Virus record (IMG/VR): IMGVR_UViG_2671180770_000025
From: a virus
Taxonomy: Duplodnaviria; Heunggongvirae; Uroviricota; Caudoviricetes
DNA length: 41,019 nt
Strand: one strand, 5' to 3'
The notes under the pieces were generated by a model that did not search any database, had not been told where the DNA came from, and saw nothing but the letters and a program-made list of their open reading frames with translations. Positions 14,913 to 40,018 of this stretch are shown piece after piece (position 1 is the first letter of the stretch; the number at the start of each line of letters is the position of its first letter). The position numbers and the translations under genes are program-made.

Positions 14913-15263
14913 TTATTTATTGAAGATCTGAAATAGAAGGCTACATATCGTAGCAATATTTGCCCCATAAGATAGGTATTTTGTAAACCCTATTCTATCA
15001 AATACAGTTAGCTGCTCTTGTTCAGTAGTAGCTTTGCTACTTACCAGCTCTTCATATGCCTGCTTTAGTTGTTCCAGAGGCGTTTCAGCTCTAATTCCTG
15101 CTGCATGAAGAGCCTGGATATTATCTTTATAGTTGACTCCGTGTCCTTCATTTTCAGAGATATCAGTACCTATTATGACTAAATCTAAAGGATTACCGGC
15201 CTCGACTCTAATGCCATCACCGCCATTACCTTTAATACGGCCACCAATTAATGTTAATGTCAT
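14913..15263 (-). CDS. Hypothetical 116-aa protein, AT-rich moron on the minus strand
   Basis: SD AAGGAAAG 8 nt upstream of ATG 15263; GNGGDGIRVEAGNPLDLVIIGTDISENEGHGV looks beta-helix-repeat-like; no lipobox. Confidence 0.5.
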   Translation of the reverse strand: MTLTLIGGRIKGNGGDGIRVEAGNPLDLVIIGTDISENEGHGVNYKDNIQALHAAGIRAETPLEQLKQAYEELVSSKATTEQEQLTVFDRIGFTKYLSYGANIATICSLLFQIFNK

Positions 15264-18416: not shown

Positions 18417-19657
18417 TGTTCTTTTCGGGATTATTTCAACGAAAAAGTGACGCACCGGTGACCACGCCAGCAGAGCTGGCGGATGCTATCGGGTTGTCCT
18501 ACGACACCTATACCGGAAAGCAGATCAGCAGCCAGCGGGCCATGCGACTGACGGCGGTTTTTTCCTGCGTCAGGGTGCTGGCAGAGTCGGTCGGGATGTT
18601 GCCCTGCAATCTGTATCACCTGAACGGCAGCCTGAAACAGAGAGCCACCGGCGAGCGTCTGCATAAGCTGATCTCCACGCATCCCAATGGCTATATGACG
18701 CCGCAGGAGTTCTGGGAGCTGGTGGTCACCTGTCTGTGCCTGCGGGGAAACTTTTACGCCTACAAAGTGAAAGCATTTGGCGAAGTGGCTGAACTGCTGC
18801 CCGTCGATCCCGGCTGTGTGGTACCGAAGCTTAACAGTAGCTGGGAGCCGGTCTATCAGGTCACATTCCCGGACGGCTCCACGGATGTACTGAGCCAGGA
18901 GGATATCTGGCATGTGCGCACGCTGACGCTGGACGGTCTGGTGGGACTGAATCCCATCGCCTATGCCCGCGAGGCAATATCGCTGGCAGCTGCGACCGAA
19001 GAGCACGGGGCCAGACTGTTCAGCAATGGTGCGGTGACGTCCGGTGTGTTGCGTACAGAGCAGACGCTGTCGGATCAGGCTTATGAGCGCCTGAAGAAAG
19101 ATTTTGAGGAGCGTCACACCGGGCTTGGCAATGCTCACCGCCCGATGATCCTTGAGATGGGGCTGGACTGGAAGTCGATGGCGCTGAACGCCGAGGACAG
19201 CCAGTTCCTGGAAACCCGCAAGTTTCAGCTTGAAGAAATCTGTCGTCTGTTCCGGGTGCCGTTGCACATGGTGCAGAACACCGATCGCGCCACCTTCAAC
19301 AATATCGAAGAGCTGGGGCTGGGATTTATCAACTATTCACTGGTGCCGTATCTGACCCGCATCGAACAGCGGATCAACACCGGACTGGTACGAAAAAGTA
19401 AGCAGGGCGTTTATTACGCCAAATTTAACGCCGGGGCGTTACTGCGCGGGGATATGAAGTCCCGTTTTGAAGCCTACGCCACCGGGATCAACTGGGGAAT
19501 TTACTCTCCCAATGACTGCCGCGACCTGGAAGATATGAATCCACGTCCCGGTGGTGATGTCTATCTCACACCGATGAACATGACCACGAAACCCTCCGAT
19601 GGCAGTAAAGCCGGTAAGCAGAAGGATAACGCCAATGCAGACGAAATAACGTCTTGA
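18416..19657 (+). CDS. Portal protein, HK97 family (GTG start)
   Basis: 413 aa downstream of terL; GTG start overlaps the upstream stop. Confidence 0.8.
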   Translation: MFFSGLFQRKSDAPVTTPAELADAIGLSYDTYTGKQISSQRAMRLTAVFSCVRVLAESVGMLPCNLYHLNGSLKQRATGERLHKLISTHPNGYMTPQEFWELVVTCLCLRGNFYAYKVKAFGEVAELLPVDPGCVVPKLNSSWEPVYQVTFPDGSTDVLSQEDIWHVRTLTLDGLVGLNPIAYAREAISLAAATEEHGARLFSNGAVTSGVLRTEQTLSDQAYERLKKDFEERHTGLGNAHRPMILEMGLDWKSMALNAEDSQFLETRKFQLEEICRLFRVPLHMVQNTDRATFNNIEELGLGFINYSLVPYLTRIEQRINTGLVRKSKQGVYYAKFNAGALLRGDMKSRFEAYATGINWGIYSPNDCRDLEDMNPRPGGDVYLTPMNMTTKPSDGSKAGKQKDNANADEITS

Positions 19658-19745
19658 TGTACCGCTGAGTCTGAAATCTGTCAGTGACTCCGGTGAGTTT
19701 GAAGGGTATGGCTCCGTCTTTGGTGTAAAGGACAGCCACGATGAT

Positions 19746-20285
19746 GTGGTGATGTCCGGGGCATTTGCTGCTTCCCTGCGGGTGTGGAGTGACAGAAAAG
19801 CGTTACCTGCGCTGCTCTGGCAGCACCGCATGGATGAGCCCATCGGTGTTTACACCGAAATGAAGGAAGACGATGTCGGGCTTTACGTCAGGGGACGGTT
19901 GCTCATTGATGATGATCCCCTGGCAAAACGCGCACATGCACACATGAAGGCCGGTTCGTTAACCGGCCTTTCTATTGGGTACGTCCTGAAGGACTGGGAA
20001 TACGACCGGACGAAAGAAGCCTTTCTGCTGAAAGAAATCGACCTCTGGGAAGTCAGCCTGGTGACATTCCCGTCTAACGACGAGGCGCGGATCAGCGACG
20101 TCAAGAACGCACTGGCCCGCGGGGAAATCCCCGAACAGAAAAAAATCGAAAGAGTCCTGCGTGATGTCGGACTCTCCCGTACCCAGGCCAAAGCATTCAT
20201 GGCCGGGGGCTATGGCGCACTGTCCCTGCGCGATGCTGAGGATGTGGGCTCTGCACTGAATGCACTGAAAAATCTGAACTTCTAA
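19746..20285 (+). CDS. Prohead protease, HK97 family; true start probably upstream (frame open from 19650) at a non-canonical codon
   Basis: Position between portal and capsid; conserved-looking N-terminal motif GEFEGYGSVFGVKDSHDDVV is encoded in-frame upstream of the first GTG/ATG. Confidence 0.65.
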   Translation: MVMSGAFAASLRVWSDRKALPALLWQHRMDEPIGVYTEMKEDDVGLYVRGRLLIDDDPLAKRAHAHMKAGSLTGLSIGYVLKDWEYDRTKEAFLLKEIDLWEVSLVTFPSNDEARISDVKNALARGEIPEQKKIERVLRDVGLSRTQAKAFMAGGYGALSLRDAEDVGSALNALKNLNF

Positions 20286-23533: not shown

Positions 23534-23704
23534 ATGTTTGTGAAACCTGTTAAAGGGCGGTCAGTGCCTGACCCTGCCCGCGGTGACCTTTTGCCCGCCG
23601 AAGGGCGAAATGTTGACGAGAACAACTACTGGCTGCGCCGTGAAGCAGCGGGTGATATCCGGCGCGTGAATAAAAAGGTGAACACCGATGACGATAAGCT
23701 TTAA
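23534..23704 (+). CDS. Small hypothetical protein (56 aa) upstream of and overlapping the sheath start
   Basis: ATG 23534 to TAA 23702..23704; below the track cutoff; assignment tentative. Confidence 0.3.
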   Translation: MFVKPVKGRSVPDPARGDLLPAEGRNVDENNYWLRREAAGDIRRVNKKVNTDDDKL

Positions 23705-25183
23705 CACCATTCCGTCGAATACGCTGGTTCCGCTGTTTTATGCGGAAATGGATAACTCGGCGGCGAATACTGCACAGGACAGCGGGGCATCGTTGCTGAT
23801 TGGTCACGCCAATAACGGTGCAGAGATTGTTGCCAACAGTCTGGTGCTGATGCCGTCGGCAGACTATGCACGCCAGATTTGTGGTGCGGGAAGTCAGCTG
23901 GCGCGTATGGTCGAGGCTTATCGCCAGACCGACCCGTTTGGCGAGCTGTATGTGATTGCCGTTCCGGAAGCCACAGGCGCGGCGGCAACGGTTACGCTGA
24001 CGGTGACCGGAGCAGCAACCGAAACCGGCACGGTGAATGTGTATGTGGGACGTACCCGCGTGCAGGCACCGGTGACCAACGGCGATAACGTCACGACGAT
24101 TGCCAGCAGTATCAAAGATGCCATCAATGCCGTTCCGGCCCTGCCGTTTACGGCCTCATCTTCGGCAGGCGTGGTCACACTGACCGCGCGTCATAAGGGG
24201 CTTTGCGGGAATGAAATTCCTGTCAGCCTCAATTACTACGGCTTTGGTGGGGGCGAAGTGCTGCCAGCGGGTGTACAGATTGCCGTGGCGACGGGGACCG
24301 CCGGAACGGGCGCTCCGGTTCTCACCGGTGCGGTGGCTGCAATGGCGGATGAGCCGTTTGATTATATCGGTCTGCCGTTCAACGACACGGCCTCCGTTAA
24401 CACGCTGGTGACCGAGATGAACGATACCAGCGGTCGCTGGAGCTATGCGCGTCAGCTGTATGGTCATGTGTATACGGCAAAGATCGGCACGCTGTCAGAA
24501 CTGGTGACCGCAGGTGACCAGTTTAACCAGCAGCACATCACCCTGGCGGGGTACGAAAAAGAGACCCAGACGCCTGCCGACGAGCTGGCGGCAAGCCGTA
24601 CCGCCCGCGCAGCGGTGTTTATCCGCAACGATCCGGCACGTCCCACGCAGACCGGTGAGCTGGTGGGTATGCTGCCTGCGCCGAAGGGGAAACGGTTCAC
24701 GATGACCGAGCAGCAGACCCTGCTGTCTCATGGCGTGGCAACGGCGTATGTCGAAAGCGGGGTGCTGCGCATTCAGCGTGATGTCACCACGTACAGGAAA
24801 AATGCTTACGGGGTTGCGGATAACAGCTACCTCGACAGCGAGACGCTGCATACCAGTGCGTATGTACTGCGCAAACTGAAATCCGTCATTACCAGTAAGT
24901 ACGGGCGTCACAAGCTTGCCTGTGACGGTACCCGCTTTGGCCCGGTCAGGCGATTGTCACCCCGGCGGTGATCAAAGGGGAACTGCTGGCAACCTACCGT
25001 CAGCTCGAGCGTGCGGGGATCGTGGAAAACTACGAACTGTTCAAGCAGTACCTGGTTGTGGAGCGTGATGCCAGCGATCCGAACCGCCTGAACACGCTGT
25101 TCCCGCCTGACTATGTTAACCAGTTGCGTGTCTTTGCCGTGGTTAACCAGTTCCGTCTTCAGTATTCAGAGGAGTCTGCATAA
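23688..25183 (+). pseudogene. Tail sheath gene (Mu gpL-like) interrupted by a -1 frameshift near 24942..24946
   Basis: Frame 0 ORF 23688..24971 (427 aa) and frame -1 ORF ending 25183 (71 aa) read as one continuous sheath protein if one G is added in ggcccg(g)gtcagg; the downstream ORF stop overlaps the tube start (TAATG). Confidence 0.65.
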
Positions 25184-27782: not shown

Positions 27783-27810
27783 CCAGGATTCCCCTCACAG
27801 GTATTGCTGG

Positions 27811-27838
27811 TTGTAAGTCATAAATAGAGTGATAGAAT
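27811..27838 (+). promoter_or_regulatory. Candidate sigma70 promoter for the tail-module moron
   Basis: -35 TTGTAA (27811..27816), 16-nt spacer, -10 TAGAAT (27833..27838). Confidence 0.4.
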
Positions 27839-27873
27839 TAATGCACATTTAGAAAAATGTTAATAGGCGAAAA

Positions 27874-28404
27874 ATGAAAGGCTATATCACAGCAAGTGTA
27901 ATTCTTGGAGCAGCGGCTATTTTTTCATCTCTCATAATCTCTGGCAACATCTCCTTTAAAGATGAACATATTATTCAGTTATCTGGAGGAGCCATAAAAC
28001 TTGGTGATGTTTATAAAGAAAATAAATTGATAAGTGCAAAGATTATTTTTCCAGATAATCAGGGTGAACAGATTCTTGTTGTCGACGGCAATCCTGAAAA
28101 CTTTAAGGAGGATTTTCAGGAGAAATTAAATAAAGTAATAAAAACTTTAAATGCGTCAAAGAAAAAAGATGAAGAGAAAGTTAGCCTGGATAATTTAAGT
28201 GTTATTGAAGAGTCTAAACTAGAGCTCGTTTCTGCGGTGCGTTACTCTGCTCAGTATGTTCCTATGTTTACTCTGACGCTGGACAAAAAAGAAATTACCA
28301 TGCCTAAAAATACTGTAATATTTCCATTTGCCAGCGATGAAACAGCTAAGTATTTAAATGAACAACAGCAAAAGTATAAAGATTCGTTGTTTCTGACTCG
28401 CTAA
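27874..28404 (+). CDS. Hypothetical 176-aa membrane-anchored or secreted protein, AT-rich moron inside the tail operon
   Basis: N-terminal hydrophobic segment (ITASVILGAAAIFSSLIISG); Lys/Glu-rich body; AT-rich versus GC-rich flanks; own promoter-like and terminator signals. Confidence 0.55.
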   Translation: MKGYITASVILGAAAIFSSLIISGNISFKDEHIIQLSGGAIKLGDVYKENKLISAKIIFPDNQGEQILVVDGNPENFKEDFQEKLNKVIKTLNASKKKDEEKVSLDNLSVIEESKLELVSAVRYSAQYVPMFTLTLDKKEITMPKNTVIFPFASDETAKYLNEQQQKYKDSLFLTR

Positions 28405-28423
28405 TTAATAAAATTCATTACAA

Positions 28424-28454
28424 GGCCACCTTCTAATAGGTGGCTTTTTTATTT
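28424..28454 (+). terminator. Intrinsic terminator after the tail-module moron
   Basis: gccacc-ttctaata-ggtggc stem-loop followed by tttttt. Confidence 0.6.
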
Positions 28455-28465
28455 TCGGAGTGTAT

Positions 28466-33466: not shown

Positions 33467-34252
33467 ATGCATCGTATAGACACGAAAACCGCGCAGAAGG
33501 ATAAGTTCGGCGCGGGTAAGAACGGTTTTACCCGTGGTAACCCCCAGACAGGCACGCCTGCCACCGATCTGGATGATGACTACTTTGACATGTTGCAGGA
33601 GGAGCTTTGCAGCGTGGTGGAGGCATCCGGTGCCAGCCTGGAGAAGGGGCGGCACGACCAGTTGCTTACCGCGCTTCGTGCGCTGCTGTTAAGCCGCAAG
33701 AATCCGTTTGGCGATATCAAATCGGATGGCACGGTGAAAACGGCTCTCGAAAACCTTGGTTTGGGAGAAGGCTCTGCATTACCGGTTGGGGTGCCTGTTC
33801 CGTGGCCTTCAGCCACTCCGCCAACAGGCTGGTTGAAATGCAATGGTGCGGCTTTTTCTGCTGAAGAATACCCGGAACTGGCAAAGGCTTACCCGACCAA
33901 TAAATTGCCTGATTTACGTGGTGAGTTTATTCGTGGCTGGGATGATGAACGTGGTGTGGATAGTGGGCGAACTCTGCTTTCAGCGCAAGGAGATGCTATT
34001 CGAAACATTACTGGCGGTTTTGGTCAGTTGCGCGTAAACAGCGAAATTAATGCAATTGTCGATGTTCAAAGTGTGAGTGGGGCTTTTTACGGAGGTACCT
34101 CAGTCAGGAATAACATCAATGTATCTATGACATACGCTAATGACCGAAAAATCCGACAAGATGTTCACTTCTCGGCGGCAAATGTTGTTCCAACAGCAAA
34201 TGAAAATCGTCCACGTAACATCGCCTTTAATTATATTGTGAGGGCCGCATGA
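33467..34252 (+). CDS. Tail fibre protein: constant N-terminal part plus currently expressed variable C-terminal part
   Basis: 261 aa; GC content drops sharply after about 33900; recombination site inside the gene at 33744..33769. Confidence 0.7.
33744..33769. promoter_or_regulatory. Left crossover site of the invertible segment (hix/gix-like 26-bp site)
   Basis: ctctcgaaaaccttggtttgggagaa resembles hixL TTCTTGAAAACCAAGGTTTTTGATAA as recalled; inverted partner at 35628..35653. Confidence 0.6.
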
Positions 34253-35267: not shown

Positions 35268-35641
35268 CTAATATCCTATCGCAAACCACGAGAAAGAAAG
35301 TTCTCTGGAATTGGCTGTTGGTGGCTGACCAATGCCCCCACGATAAAACGCCAGAGTTAATCCTCCTGCTTTGCGTGATGTTGTTTGAGCAAATACATAG
35401 TCATTTGTGTTCTCTTCCGCACTTAAAGCTCCTCCGGCAATACAGTCATTAGGGAATGCTGCAGGGAAATTAATCCAGATACTGGACTGCGTTGTCAGCT
35501 TTCCATACCCGGCTTTCAGAATTAATCCTCCTGGTAACTCAAAATTAAGAGGATTGTTTTTTGTAAATGGAAAGTTGGAGATATCCGGTATCTGATTTTC
35601 CCCTGTCCCCACATCCCGTTTTGCCGCTTCTCCCAAACCAA
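35268..35641 (-). CDS. Alternative tail fibre variable C-terminal cassette (no own start; expressed only after inversion)
   Basis: Open frame on the minus strand from the right crossover site; encodes NVGLGEA matching NLGLGEG at the left site. Confidence 0.55.
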
Positions 35642-35653
35642 CGTTTATGAAAA
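35628..35653. promoter_or_regulatory. Right crossover site of the invertible segment (inverted copy of the left site)
   Basis: Reverse complement ttttcataaacgttggtttgggagaa shares AAAC.TTGGTTTGGGAGAA with the left site. Confidence 0.6.
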
Positions 35654-35931: not shown

Positions 35932-37821
35932 TTAATCGTGTTTTGGCCATACTTTCAATGCAATTTCCCCCAACTTTTTACCCCGCTCCAGGATTTCATC
36001 CTCATCCCATTTATCCTTAACTATAAGTGGAATGTTCAGTCGTAGATTGGTGTGGACGATGAGAGCATCACGTTTTTTCAGAAATACAGCATTCTGAACA
36101 GAACGGTTTACGCTAAGGTTAAGCAAAGTTAGATTTCCCAACGTAGCTATCGCTTGTTGCCGTTTCCTTACCAGTAGCTGTTCAGGGGTAAGATCGGTTC
36201 CAGACAGAACAATTTGGTTCAATACCGTAGCATCTGAATTTGTCACCATATGACCATTTTCGAGAGGCCAACAGGAATACCAACTTTGAGGCATAAGATG
36301 ATCGATATCGAGGTTAGAAAGATTTGGAACATCAGGCTTCTCTGTCTTCACTTGGCGACAAAGTTCTCTTTCAAGTTCCGTTAACATTGAGCGCATTTTC
36401 GGTGCGTCGAGCCTGCCAGGATAAAGTGGAGCATTGATGCAAGCGTTGAGAAATTCTGAGTCCCCAGGCCAACGTGAGGCTTCGCCATTTAAGCTATTGA
36501 GGATATTACGTAACTCAACACTGGAAATTTCCGTTTTAGACAAGTGCCGCAATACATTCATAAATACATTGTTGTAATTCTTTGGCGTCAGGCCACATAC
36601 GGCTCTTCGTACTACGTAGGAGACAAGATCATTATACATGGCTGCTTTCTCATCATCGGCGATGTTAGCTATCGAAATGAACAAAGCAAGCGGATAAAGT
36701 GTCGTCACATCATAGGCTGCGATGCGATGTCCAAAGTGTGAGATGGGGGTTGTGCCAAAACCACCAACCAATTCTTTATATTGTGATGCATATTGTTTGA
36801 GGCGCTTTACTTGCAGATCTGCTCGTTGTGAAGGCAAGTCCTTACTTACATAATCACGATACTCATTGTAAAGACGAGACAGATCGATTTCACGTTGCCT
36901 TTCTGATTGCAATGTCGCATGCACTAGCCACTCCATGCGTGGTTTATTAATACGACCACGACGTTGTCTTTCTGACCAGTACGTATCTTCAAAGATCTTC
37001 CACTCATTCTCATATAATTCAACAGCATTAATATTTTCATGTTCAGCGCACATAAAAATATAATTGCGAATAAGATCTGTGGCATGAAGTTCCGCACCTC
37101 TGCCATTTAATGTTTCAAAAATTATTTGAGCGTCATCTTCAGCCTCGAGAAATATGCTTACTAGTTTCAGATCCGTCAAGACAGCCTCAATTAATGCTAC
37201 AGCATTTTCTCGTGGTGAGTGATTTTCTATTTTAATCCACTTTATAAAGGCTTCAGTAAAAAAACATAATGCTTCTAGTGATGGCGGGTGATTAAAATGC
37301 TTACGCAACGTACCATGCTGCGTGAAACTATCAGAGAATACATTCCGGATATCGTCAATATTTTCAACATTAAAACTTTGAATAAAATGAGTTTGATCCC
37401 GAAAAGTTGGCCACAGTTTGAAGCGCTCTACTTCTTTATTTCGCATTGTGTCTTCGTTTGAGTTTTTCAGGCAAGACGAAATGAGAGGCTCTAAGTTGGA
37501 AAGATCTGTCGCACGTAATGCTAATCGGATGGATGCCAGAACATATTGAAGAGTGGTCAATCGTTGCTGACCATCAATAATATGTATGGAATCTACACCT
37601 AATAATCCTTTTTTTGGTTGAGGTTCCAGTACCACTGCACCAAGGAAATGGGGAGTTGGTTTTGTACCCGAGAGCCGGGATTGTGCTTTCTCTAGGATAT
37701 CCTCCAGTAGAGCTGACCATTGGTTTCGCTGAGTCCATACATAGGCACGTTGATAGAATGGAACGCAGTATTGTCGGCGGTCTTGAAAAAGTTGTTGGAC
37801 AGTTAGCGTCTCGGATTTCAT
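35932..37821 (-). CDS. DUF262/DUF1524 two-domain nuclease (GmrSD-like, candidate type IV restriction / anti-phage enzyme); start may be 37881
   Basis: N-terminal DUF262 motifs (VPFYQRAYVWT, IIDGQQRLTTL); C-terminal DUF1524-like His-Me motif (NLDIDHLMPQSW); about 40% GC cargo. Confidence 0.7.
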   Translation of the reverse strand: MKSETLTVQQLFQDRRQYCVPFYQRAYVWTQRNQWSALLEDILEKAQSRLSGTKPTPHFLGAVVLEPQPKKGLLGVDSIHIIDGQQRLTTLQYVLASIRLALRATDLSNLEPLISSCLKNSNEDTMRNKEVERFKLWPTFRDQTHFIQSFNVENIDDIRNVFSDSFTQHGTLRKHFNHPPSLEALCFFTEAFIKWIKIENHSPRENAVALIEAVLTDLKLVSIFLEAEDDAQIIFETLNGRGAELHATDLIRNYIFMCAEHENINAVELYENEWKIFEDTYWSERQRRGRINKPRMEWLVHATLQSERQREIDLSRLYNEYRDYVSKDLPSQRADLQVKRLKQYASQYKELVGGFGTTPISHFGHRIAAYDVTTLYPLALFISIANIADDEKAAMYNDLVSYVVRRAVCGLTPKNYNNVFMNVLRHLSKTEISSVELRNILNSLNGEASRWPGDSEFLNACINAPLYPGRLDAPKMRSMLTELERELCRQVKTEKPDVPNLSNLDIDHLMPQSWYSCWPLENGHMVTNSDATVLNQIVLSGTDLTPEQLLVRKRQQAIATLGNLTLLNLSVNRSVQNAVFLKKRDALIVHTNLRLNIPLIVKDKWDEDEILERGKKLGEIALKVWPKHD

Positions 37822-38554
37822 GGTATACCTGTAAGCGACATTGTACAAAAGTGAGGAGTTAATCTGATTTAGAACAATCATTTTATGTTGCTATGATACA
37901 ACGTATTTGTTACCGGTTAAGTAAAAAACGCGTCTGAACGCTGACGTTTTAGGGCTTTACTAGTTATTCTTTCTTATCTCTTCATCATCCCATCGGCATC
38001 CTGTCGAGGTTGTTGACTTGTTGTTATTTATTTTGTTTAGGCGCTGTTTAATTATTATTGATGGGACTGGTGGTGAGAGGTGATTGAAACCGCAGACAGG
38101 TCGTATGCAAGACGTGCTGCGGTTGGCTGGTAAATGTTAGATAGTGCGAGTATTGAATGATTTCTAGCCGTTATTGATTTTACGTATTTTTGTATGAGAG
38201 GATTTGCATCTCCTGCCACCGACCCTCCATGACTTTACGCCACTGTCTCTAGGGCTGCTATGTGCCAAAAGCGGAAGTTGAGGGGGGATGGCAAGCACTC
38301 GTATCGTGGCAAAATTTTGGCTACCGCTTCTCCCGGTCGCAACCGATTTAGTTGACTATGGCGCGTGTGTTAATCAACGGGGAGGAAGTTAGAGGAAACA
38401 ATAAATAAAGACATAACCGTCTGTTTTTATTTAAATTATTGACTGATGCGAGGAGTTGAACTTCCGATACCCCATGATATCTTACTTAGATAGTGAGATG
38501 ATCTAAGATACACTATATAAGTTACAATCTAGCCGGAGATGTAGGAGGGAGTAT

Positions 38555-39358
38555 ATGGGGTATGATTATAAAGAGCATATTAGCAATGCTAAGAGGCTCT
38601 ATGAAATTGGGGATAACGCTTCTTTAAGATACTGTGCATTGGAATTGAGATTTGCAATTGAGTGCCATGTATATATTCAATTAAGAGCAGGGCTAGGAAC
38701 AATTCCAGAGACGGTAATTAACACATGGCAACCACCTCAAGCAATAAAATCTTTATGCATGTTTGAGGAAACAGCAGATCAGGATTTAAAAGTAACTATA
38801 ACTTGTGATGACTCTAATGAGATAACAGCAAACTATAAAAATATTAAGTATAAGGACCTTAATAAATGGTATAATACCCTTGGGAGTTTTTTACATCAAC
38901 CAACCATAAAAAAGCAAGAATTTCAAGTAGATAAAGATAAACTAAATTCGATATTATCGAATTTAGCTGAACTGTGCGATCATCAGCTCATAACATTTCA
39001 TCGTGGTTATGAGAAAATAAAATGTGAAAAATGTAAAAAGGAAATTATTTTTACTAAAAATTACGTGAAAAAAAATAATAAAATAGATTGCCAAAATGCT
39101 GGTTGCCATAATTATGTTATTATTAGACTTGCCCCGGATGGTACATATGAATCACTCCAATCTGCTGTAGTAGCTTGCTTTATATGTGGTGAAAAAAACC
39201 ACATCTCATTATGCGACATGGAGGATGGAGCAGAGTTATATTGCAAGACGTGTAAAAATAAACATGTAATTAAAAAAGCTATTTTCTCCCAAGACAAAGT
39301 TGTTCCCATACCTGAATTTACTTTCGAAAACTCATTGTTGGTTGAGGACAAAGAGTAA
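38555..39358 (+). CDS. Hypothetical 267-aa protein: helical N-terminal region with R-x5-H motif, C-terminal double zinc-ribbon-like region
   Basis: Very AT-rich; ELRFAIECH fits Rx4-6H; CEKCKK...CQNAGCH and CFICGE...CKTCKNKH Cys clusters; no recognised family. Confidence 0.5.
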   Translation: MGYDYKEHISNAKRLYEIGDNASLRYCALELRFAIECHVYIQLRAGLGTIPETVINTWQPPQAIKSLCMFEETADQDLKVTITCDDSNEITANYKNIKYKDLNKWYNTLGSFLHQPTIKKQEFQVDKDKLNSILSNLAELCDHQLITFHRGYEKIKCEKCKKEIIFTKNYVKKNNKIDCQNAGCHNYVIIRLAPDGTYESLQSAVVACFICGEKNHISLCDMEDGAELYCKTCKNKHVIKKAIFSQDKVVPIPEFTFENSLLVEDKE

Positions 39359-39586
39359 CATCAAGTTGTTTGTAGAGCTTGCTTGACCTGCTCCCCGTTG
39401 ATTAATACATATTTCTGCTGGTCATATCATTATTTTGAGCCTGACGGCTTGATCAACTCAGTCCGCTGTTCGCTCATAGCGGACCTTACAACCACCTGAT
39501 TGGTCCGTTCCGTGTCAGGAGCGGATACCGTAAGCATTTTATCCTCTGGAGGGGCATCCCTTTCAAGAAATGCATCCGTTGTGGAT

Positions 39587-40018
39587 TTATGCAACACCTG
39601 AAGCTACTAACAAAGAACAATTTGTCTGACCAAAGGCATTTTTTAGCAGCGGGAAAAGAGGGGGAAGTTCCGTTAGCGATTTTAGAGGCTTGAGGCTCTT
39701 AAGTGATTTAAGTGATGGCAAATTAGGTGTGGTAACCATGTCTTTTACTGCACAGGCAACATAGCCATCGTGATCAATCAACATACCATTAGTAAACCAG
39801 CCTAAATGATTCCCATTGAATCCATAAACATCAAACTCATTGTTCTGGTTATGTTTAAGGTAGGCGCTTGGTTCACCCTCCCAACTATATAAAGTCAACT
39901 CGTCATCAAGTGAAATATAAACGACGGCGTTGCCTTGATTATCATATAGATCTAGGTCATTACTCGCAGTAACACAAGCTGAGAAAAGAAACATAACTAG
40001 CACGAGTGATTTTTTCAT
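39587..40018 (-). CDS. Secreted hypothetical protein with C-terminal LKS repeat (143 aa)
   Basis: N-terminal signal peptide MKKSLVLVMFLFSACVTA; C-terminal PSLKSLKSLKPLKSL repeat encoded by a short tandem DNA repeat. Confidence 0.45.
   Translation of the reverse strand: MKKSLVLVMFLFSACVTASNDLDLYDNQGNAVVYISLDDELTLYSWEGEPSAYLKHNQNNEFDVYGFNGNHLGWFTNGMLIDHDGYVACAVKDMVTTPNLPSLKSLKSLKPLKSLTELPPLFPLLKNAFGQTNCSLLVASGVA

Follow-up and report, generated by a model that had tools for sequence, protein, structure and literature searches.

Why is the tail sheath gene in this DNA divided between two reading frames, and could the phage that carries it still build a tail? The window, by which we mean the whole stretch analysed (41,019 nucleotides; IMG/VR record IMGVR_UViG_2671180770_000025, Caudoviricetes), had been given a preliminary description from its letters alone, in which the sheath gene was read as split by a -1 frameshift. 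We consider it very probable that the window is an E. coli prophage of the SfV/SfII family whose sheath gene was turned into a pseudogene by a genuine, very recent deletion of a single T, and that the truncated protein should not polymerise.

A tail sheath gene of the Mu family in two frames

The split is present as it was described, with frame 0 ending at TGA 24969 in the open reading frames (ORFs) and their translations. The features around it are these:

23534..23704 (+), DUF2635 / Mu gp38-like gene, intact; its end runs into the start of the sheath gene
23688..24971 (+), upstream piece of the sheath pseudogene; after 419 native residues come 8 out of frame (VRRLSPRR) and a TGA; from Pfam, deposited as CTT17848.1
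24940..24941 (+), 1-nt deletion; the missing T would stand between G24940 and C24941; from alignments with relatives
24969..24971 (+), premature TGA in the shifted frame, overlapping GTG 24968 as GTGA
24968..25183 (+), 3' sheath remnant in the -1 frame, native residues 428-498 from GTG 24968; from Pfam, deposited as CTT17873.1
25183..25539 (+), tail tube gene, intact; 118 aa with 100% identity to the tube protein of a relative

The frame 0 ORF encodes 427 aa, and its last residues in the translated list are ...TRFGPVRRLSPRR before TGA 24969-24971 (the C-terminus reads ...KLACDGTRFGPVRRLSPRR at this stop). The -1 frame is open from 24926 and reads ...GQAIVTPAVIKGELLATY... as far as TAA 25181-25183, and both frames are open across 24926-24968. 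The TAA lies within TAATG, in which the ATG of the tube gene stands at 25183, so the coupling to the tube gene noted at the outset is borne out. The first changed codon is GTC 24945-24947 (V420 for G420), and from 24945 onward it is the -1 frame that is sheath-coding. Native residues 1-419 are kept, 420-427 are replaced by VRRLSPRR, and 420-498 are lost. The 71 codons first assigned to the -1 frame are correct for the ORF counted from GTG 24968, but the sheath-coding part is longer, with 79 codons from G420.

The 1.5-kb sheath region is 97-98% identical to the sheath genes of SfII, SfV, SfIV, SfI and several E. coli phages, and up to 99.9% identical to prophage genes in about 1,100 of 5,426 complete E. 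coli genomes. In those records the sheath is a single ORF of 497-498 aa that bears the label tail sheath, 'similar to phage Mu GpL'; a DUF2635 (Mu gp38-like) gene precedes it and the tail tube gene follows. It had been suggested that the reading of a split gene would fall if sheath proteins normally ended at the frame 0 stop; they do not, as SfV, SfII and about 1,000 E. coli copies have proteins of 497-498 aa. SfV (orf11, NP_599043.1), SfII (SfII_13), SfIV, SfI and E. coli KSC1031 hold the gene in the same operon slot, in the order DUF2635 gene, sheath, tube, tail assembly and tape measure, and the order in the window is likewise sheath, tube (with the TAATG overlap at 25183), tail assembly protein and tape measure. 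In these the sheath is a single 498-aa ORF, whereas in the window a T is missing and ORFs of 427 aa and 71 aa take its place.

The Pfam domains are divided in the same way. An intact relative, identical to the restored gene, matches Phage_sheath_domII, Phage_sheath_1 and Phage_sheath_1C, all above the gathering score. The 427-aa ORF matches Phage_sheath_domII (residues 96-196) and Phage_sheath_1 (206-368) and has no Pfam match to Phage_sheath_1C, while the 71-aa ORF matches the second half of that last domain (profile positions 44-104); the break falls inside Phage_sheath_1C, which spans residues 377-489. Residues 3-490 of the intact sheath align with 4-494 of Mu gp39 (PDB 9khy, an entry whose identity PMC11915804 confirms; E 6.6e-80), and the segment missing here is strongly conserved. 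Mu gp39 (gpL; PDB 9khy/9ki1/9lj8, PMC11915804) is an end-to-end homologue that includes the conserved C-terminal segment, whereas the window copy is without the region equivalent to approximately Mu residues 424-495. Unlike those of Mu, the head and early genes of the window prophage are lambdoid/HK97-like. A functional gene of this kind runs without interruption as one ORF for about 495-500 aa, C-arm included, and here that ORF is split by a 1-nt deletion. The window sheath is a pseudogene of the Mu gpL/gp39-type family and not a functional member of it.

Identity of the lost base

At the lesion, relatives read TTTGGTCCCGG and the window reads TTTGG-CCCGG. Set out by codons, TTT GGT CCC GGT CAG in the relatives is aligned with TTTGG-CCCGGTCAG in the window, and the gap falls at 24940/24941. 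The deletion was defined by alignment with KSC1031, SfV, SfII and VTB97584v, together with 10 further loci. The preliminary description was right that one base has been lost but wrong in naming it a G, since the relatives show a T at 24940/24941; its inserted G would yield the same protein (F-G-P-G-Q) and is absent from relatives. Its placing of the lesion in a short C/G run does not hold either. There is no mononucleotide run at the site and no run of at least five identical bases in 24850-24975, and the lost T (GG[T]CCC) lies outside any repeat tract.

With the T restored, the ORF has 498 aa, in agreement with the length of about 498 aa first given for the repaired gene. It is identical at 1497/1497 nt to the intact E. 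coli KSC1031 gene (WP_021564101.1), and its protein differs from that of SfV at 9 amino acids. Because the restored gene matches an annotated sheath gene at every nucleotide and both pieces match sheath Pfam domains, the arrangement is no chance pattern of ORFs. The window gene is one event away from a working allele, which argues that the deletion is evolutionarily very recent.

A second lesion in the prohead protease gene

The sheath is not the only morphogenesis gene that is broken. A further lesion, missed by the preliminary description, means that there is a defect in head maturation besides that in the tail:

19635..20285 (+), prohead protease gene (Peptidase_S78, HK97 type), with a stop at codon 5, CAA>TAA at 19647-19649

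The window reads MQTK*RLDV where relatives read MQTKQRLDV, a difference of a single C>T in the DNA alignment and of one in-frame stop by tblastn. From the next ATG, at 19752, the product would be without positions 6-38 of the Pfam profile. The same stop is seen at loci L007 and L011, and a contig from sequencing run SRR10760843 shares it; the truncated product, CTT17560.1, is found on 3 contigs, which makes it as rare as the truncated sheath. The prophage carries two independent knock-out point mutations, one affecting head maturation and one affecting the tail.

The protease gene overlaps the portal gene, and the C>T also changes the third-last residue of the portal protein, Thr>Ile.

The deletion in independent data

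The split had been put down to either an error or a real inactivating mutation, and the evidence favours the second. Complete E. coli genomes (5,426) have 1,011 sites homologous to a 70-nt query centred on the lesion. None is an exact match, and the best matches all show the one-base gap relative to the window query. Nor does the deleted allele occur in 185,579 species-representative genomes or in JGI metagenome contigs. The exact 427-aa product is on 3-4 contigs on record, including one from Logan SRR10760843. Another of these contigs, CYAV01000030.1 of GCA_001277695.1, matches the window without a difference over 12.2 kb (100% identity); the window was evidently taken from it.

If the window contained a sequencing or assembly error, the true genome would keep the T and an intact 498-aa sheath gene. 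Such an error would suit a window that differs from the intact allele by one base only and comes from a draft assembly (contig CYAV01000030.1), and error-like lesions are seen in the sheath genes of other assemblies, with many indels in L016 and single-base losses in metagenome scaffolds L010 and L013. However, the Logan de novo assembly of SRR10760843 has the same T deletion and the same protease stop as the window, and it is no copy of the window: over 21 kb the two differ by 2 substitutions, and the tail-fibre segment is inverted. The run represents either another isolate or the same strain resequenced, and it is independent sequencing in either case; a search of the literature for the accessions of the two datasets gave no publication. 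Since this contig differs from the window by two SNPs and an inversion and yet has the deletion, the deletion has been obtained twice, from separate read sets. Nor is the lesion site a homopolymer, and the second lesion, which co-occurs in both datasets, is a substitution and not an indel.

The remainder of the prophage points the same way. Of about 60 annotated proteins from two close relatives that were searched against the window with tblastn, just two are broken there, the sheath (in two frames) and the protease (with one stop). The other genes, about 58, are full length and without stops or frame changes, which indicates that the window assembly is not indel-prone. We therefore regard an error as very unlikely. 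Judged from these sequences, the loss of the T is a true, recent mutation private to the lineage of the window.

Could expression be rescued?

A rescue of the full-length protein would need a -1 shift somewhere in 24926-24968. Both frames are open over this interval, as -1 frameshifting there would demand, and the GTGA stop/start overlap can support termination-reinitiation, by which the 427-aa fragment and a reinitiated 71-aa fragment might assemble non-covalently. That a functional sheath arises by either route seems to us extremely unlikely. There is no X XXY YYZ slippery heptamer in the zero frame within 24850-24971 and no homopolymer of at least 5 bases near the site to support transcriptional slippage. 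The two-frame arrangement is unconserved, as homologues have a single ORF and other split copies are broken at other positions by different lesions. Programmed -1 frameshifting and transcriptional slippage were rejected on these three grounds.

Further points weigh against a functional sheath. Native residues 420-427 are absent from both fragments and eight foreign residues are added, and by reading of the sequence there is no Shine-Dalgarno-like element usefully spaced from GTG 24968. Approximately 180 copies of the protein are needed per tail (Mu has 30 hexameric rings), which is beyond leaky frameshifting, and the protease stop makes the phage defective anyway.

Type VI secretion sheaths are naturally made of two proteins, and this counts in favour of assembly from two fragments. 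The GTGA overlap may permit some reinitiation at GTG 24968, giving the 71-aa fragment. It is nevertheless hardly credible that the 427-aa body and a reinitiated 71-aa C-arm piece would make up a working two-protein sheath, a phage analogue of TssB/TssC.

A single-base indel is also the kind of change by which slipped-strand mispairing could switch tail production on and off in a reversible, phase-variable manner. Nothing beyond this speaks for such a switch, and its probability is close to nil: the lost T is in no repeat tract, both datasets show the allele as fixed, and none of the other sites examined has it.

Other broken copies in the prophage family

The 71-aa 3' ORF is on 114 contigs, in 244 index blocks. 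We considered that the lost T might be widespread and ancestral to further decay. This was rejected, because the loci in question keep the wild-type GGTCCCGG and owe their broken sheath genes to other lesions. The lost T was found only in the lineage of the window.

Other copies in the family, for example ACL6YL_RS19160 of NZ_CP178707.1 (annotated 'frameshifted') and those at loci L008-L015, also have an inactivated sheath, often with the 71-aa 3' ORF left over. Their lesions differ from that of the window and among themselves. One C is lost in ATTACCAG in L010 and one C in TTGCCAG in L013; a large internal sheath deletion is common to four assemblies (L008, L009, L012 and L015); a deletion in L014 fuses an early gene to the sheath 3' end; and L016 has many sheath indels in a noisy assembly. 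These different, independent lesions show the pattern of random decay in a resident prophage and not that of a recoding signal.

Among L008-L017, which are other E. coli assemblies and gut metagenome scaffolds, some copies also have deletions in tube, tape-measure or capsid genes. In E. coli KSC1031 (L001), the tape-measure gene, from 3764 onwards, is annotated as frameshifted, and the defect of this prophage copy thus seems to lie in another tail gene.

The prophage and its cargo

The window element is a full-length SfV/SfII-like prophage of E. coli. From left to right it has an integrase, lambdoid early genes, lysis genes, an HK97-type head, a Mu-like tail, an invertible tail-fibre segment and cargo. 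Phages of the SfV/SfII group integrate at tRNA-Thr (thrW) next to proA. In the relative STEC005, tRNA-Thr and proA lie directly beside an integrase 100% identical to that of the window; the window begins at the integrase stop codon, with the tRNA outside it.

SfV and SfII belong to a group of temperate phages that convert the serotype of Shigella flexneri. Their morphogenesis module is collinear with that of the window, with 97-98% identity over the sheath region. Between their tail-fibre genes and attachment site these phages carry gtr genes for O-antigen modification, whereas the window has none there. Its positions 35932-40018 are wholly occupied by three other genes:

35932-37881 (-), GmrSD-family type IV (modification-dependent) restriction enzyme, intact; Pfam GmrSD_N and GmrSD_C, PADLOC mREase_IV at 1440 bits
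38555-39358, hypothetical gene, 267 aa
39587-40018 (-), 4-fold beta-flower protein gene

The prophage is related to the SfV/SfII group and is itself no serotype converter.

An AT-rich insert lies at 27783-28459, between the tape-measure and DNA-circularization genes, with a GC content of 0.34 against approximately 0.55 around it. It contains an ORF of 176 aa (27874-28404, +) with a hydrophobic N-terminus, followed by a hairpin and T-run at about 28424-28452. For this ORF, PHROG gives family 5485 (unknown function), while Pfam and PADLOC give no match. The insert is present in L008 and L015 and absent from L005, L010, L013 and L017, and it looks like a moron.

Inverted repeats of 20 nt (AAACCTTGGTTTGGGAGAAG) at 33751-33770 and 35627-35646 bound a 1.9-kb cassette for the tail-fibre tip and its assembly. 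In the SRR10760843 contig the segment 33771-35626 is reversed, with breakpoints exactly at the repeats. In a close relative just a 123-nt remnant of a recombinase gene is annotated beside the invertible segment, so the segment may be turned by an invertase from another part of the genome. Between the lysis genes and the HNH/terminase genes there is an ORF of 116 aa (14913-15263, -) that has a weak PHROG match only and no match in Pfam or PADLOC; at the same position STEC005 has a different, unrelated gene.

Discussion

In our reading, translation of the sheath message shifts after Pro419, adds eight wrong residues and ends at TGA 24969. By homology with Mu gp39, the lost residues 420-498 include the C-arm and part of the conserved C-terminal domain. 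In Mu, sheath subunits are joined by a handshake, a four-stranded sheet to which one subunit gives its C-arm, the neighbouring subunit its N-arm and the next ring its two-stranded domain I sheet (beta-hairpin) (PMC11915804). This sheet is retained in both the extended and the contracted sheath, and the same interaction with the baseplate wedge protein gp46 initiates sheath assembly; the tail of Mu has 30 hexameric sheath rings (PMC11915804). A sheath protein cut at residue 419, without the C-arm and much of Phage_sheath_1C, should be unable to initiate or lengthen a sheath, and no contractile tails are expected from the prophage.

With codon 5 of the protease gene changed to an ochre stop, head maturation should fail as well. 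From the truncated sheath and the protease stop together, no infectious particles would be expected. As far as gene content and homology can tell, both assembly and infectivity would be lost.

There is nothing unusual in a recently disabled prophage with a frameshifted pseudogene; such features are well known, and this one brings no new mechanism. Its value is for annotation only, and no new biological question is opened by it. In databases, CTT17848.1 and CTT17873.1 belong together as a single entry marked as a frameshifted pseudogene, and the prophage itself needs to be listed as defective. Since all its other genes are full length, prediction programs would rate the element as intact if this were left undone. 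The cargo, meaning the GmrSD enzyme and the AT-rich gene of the tail operon, is still intact in the disabled prophage. The element shows, on a small scale and cleanly, how prophage decay begins: two morphogenesis genes have been knocked out by point mutations, and the prophage is otherwise indistinguishable from its intact relatives.
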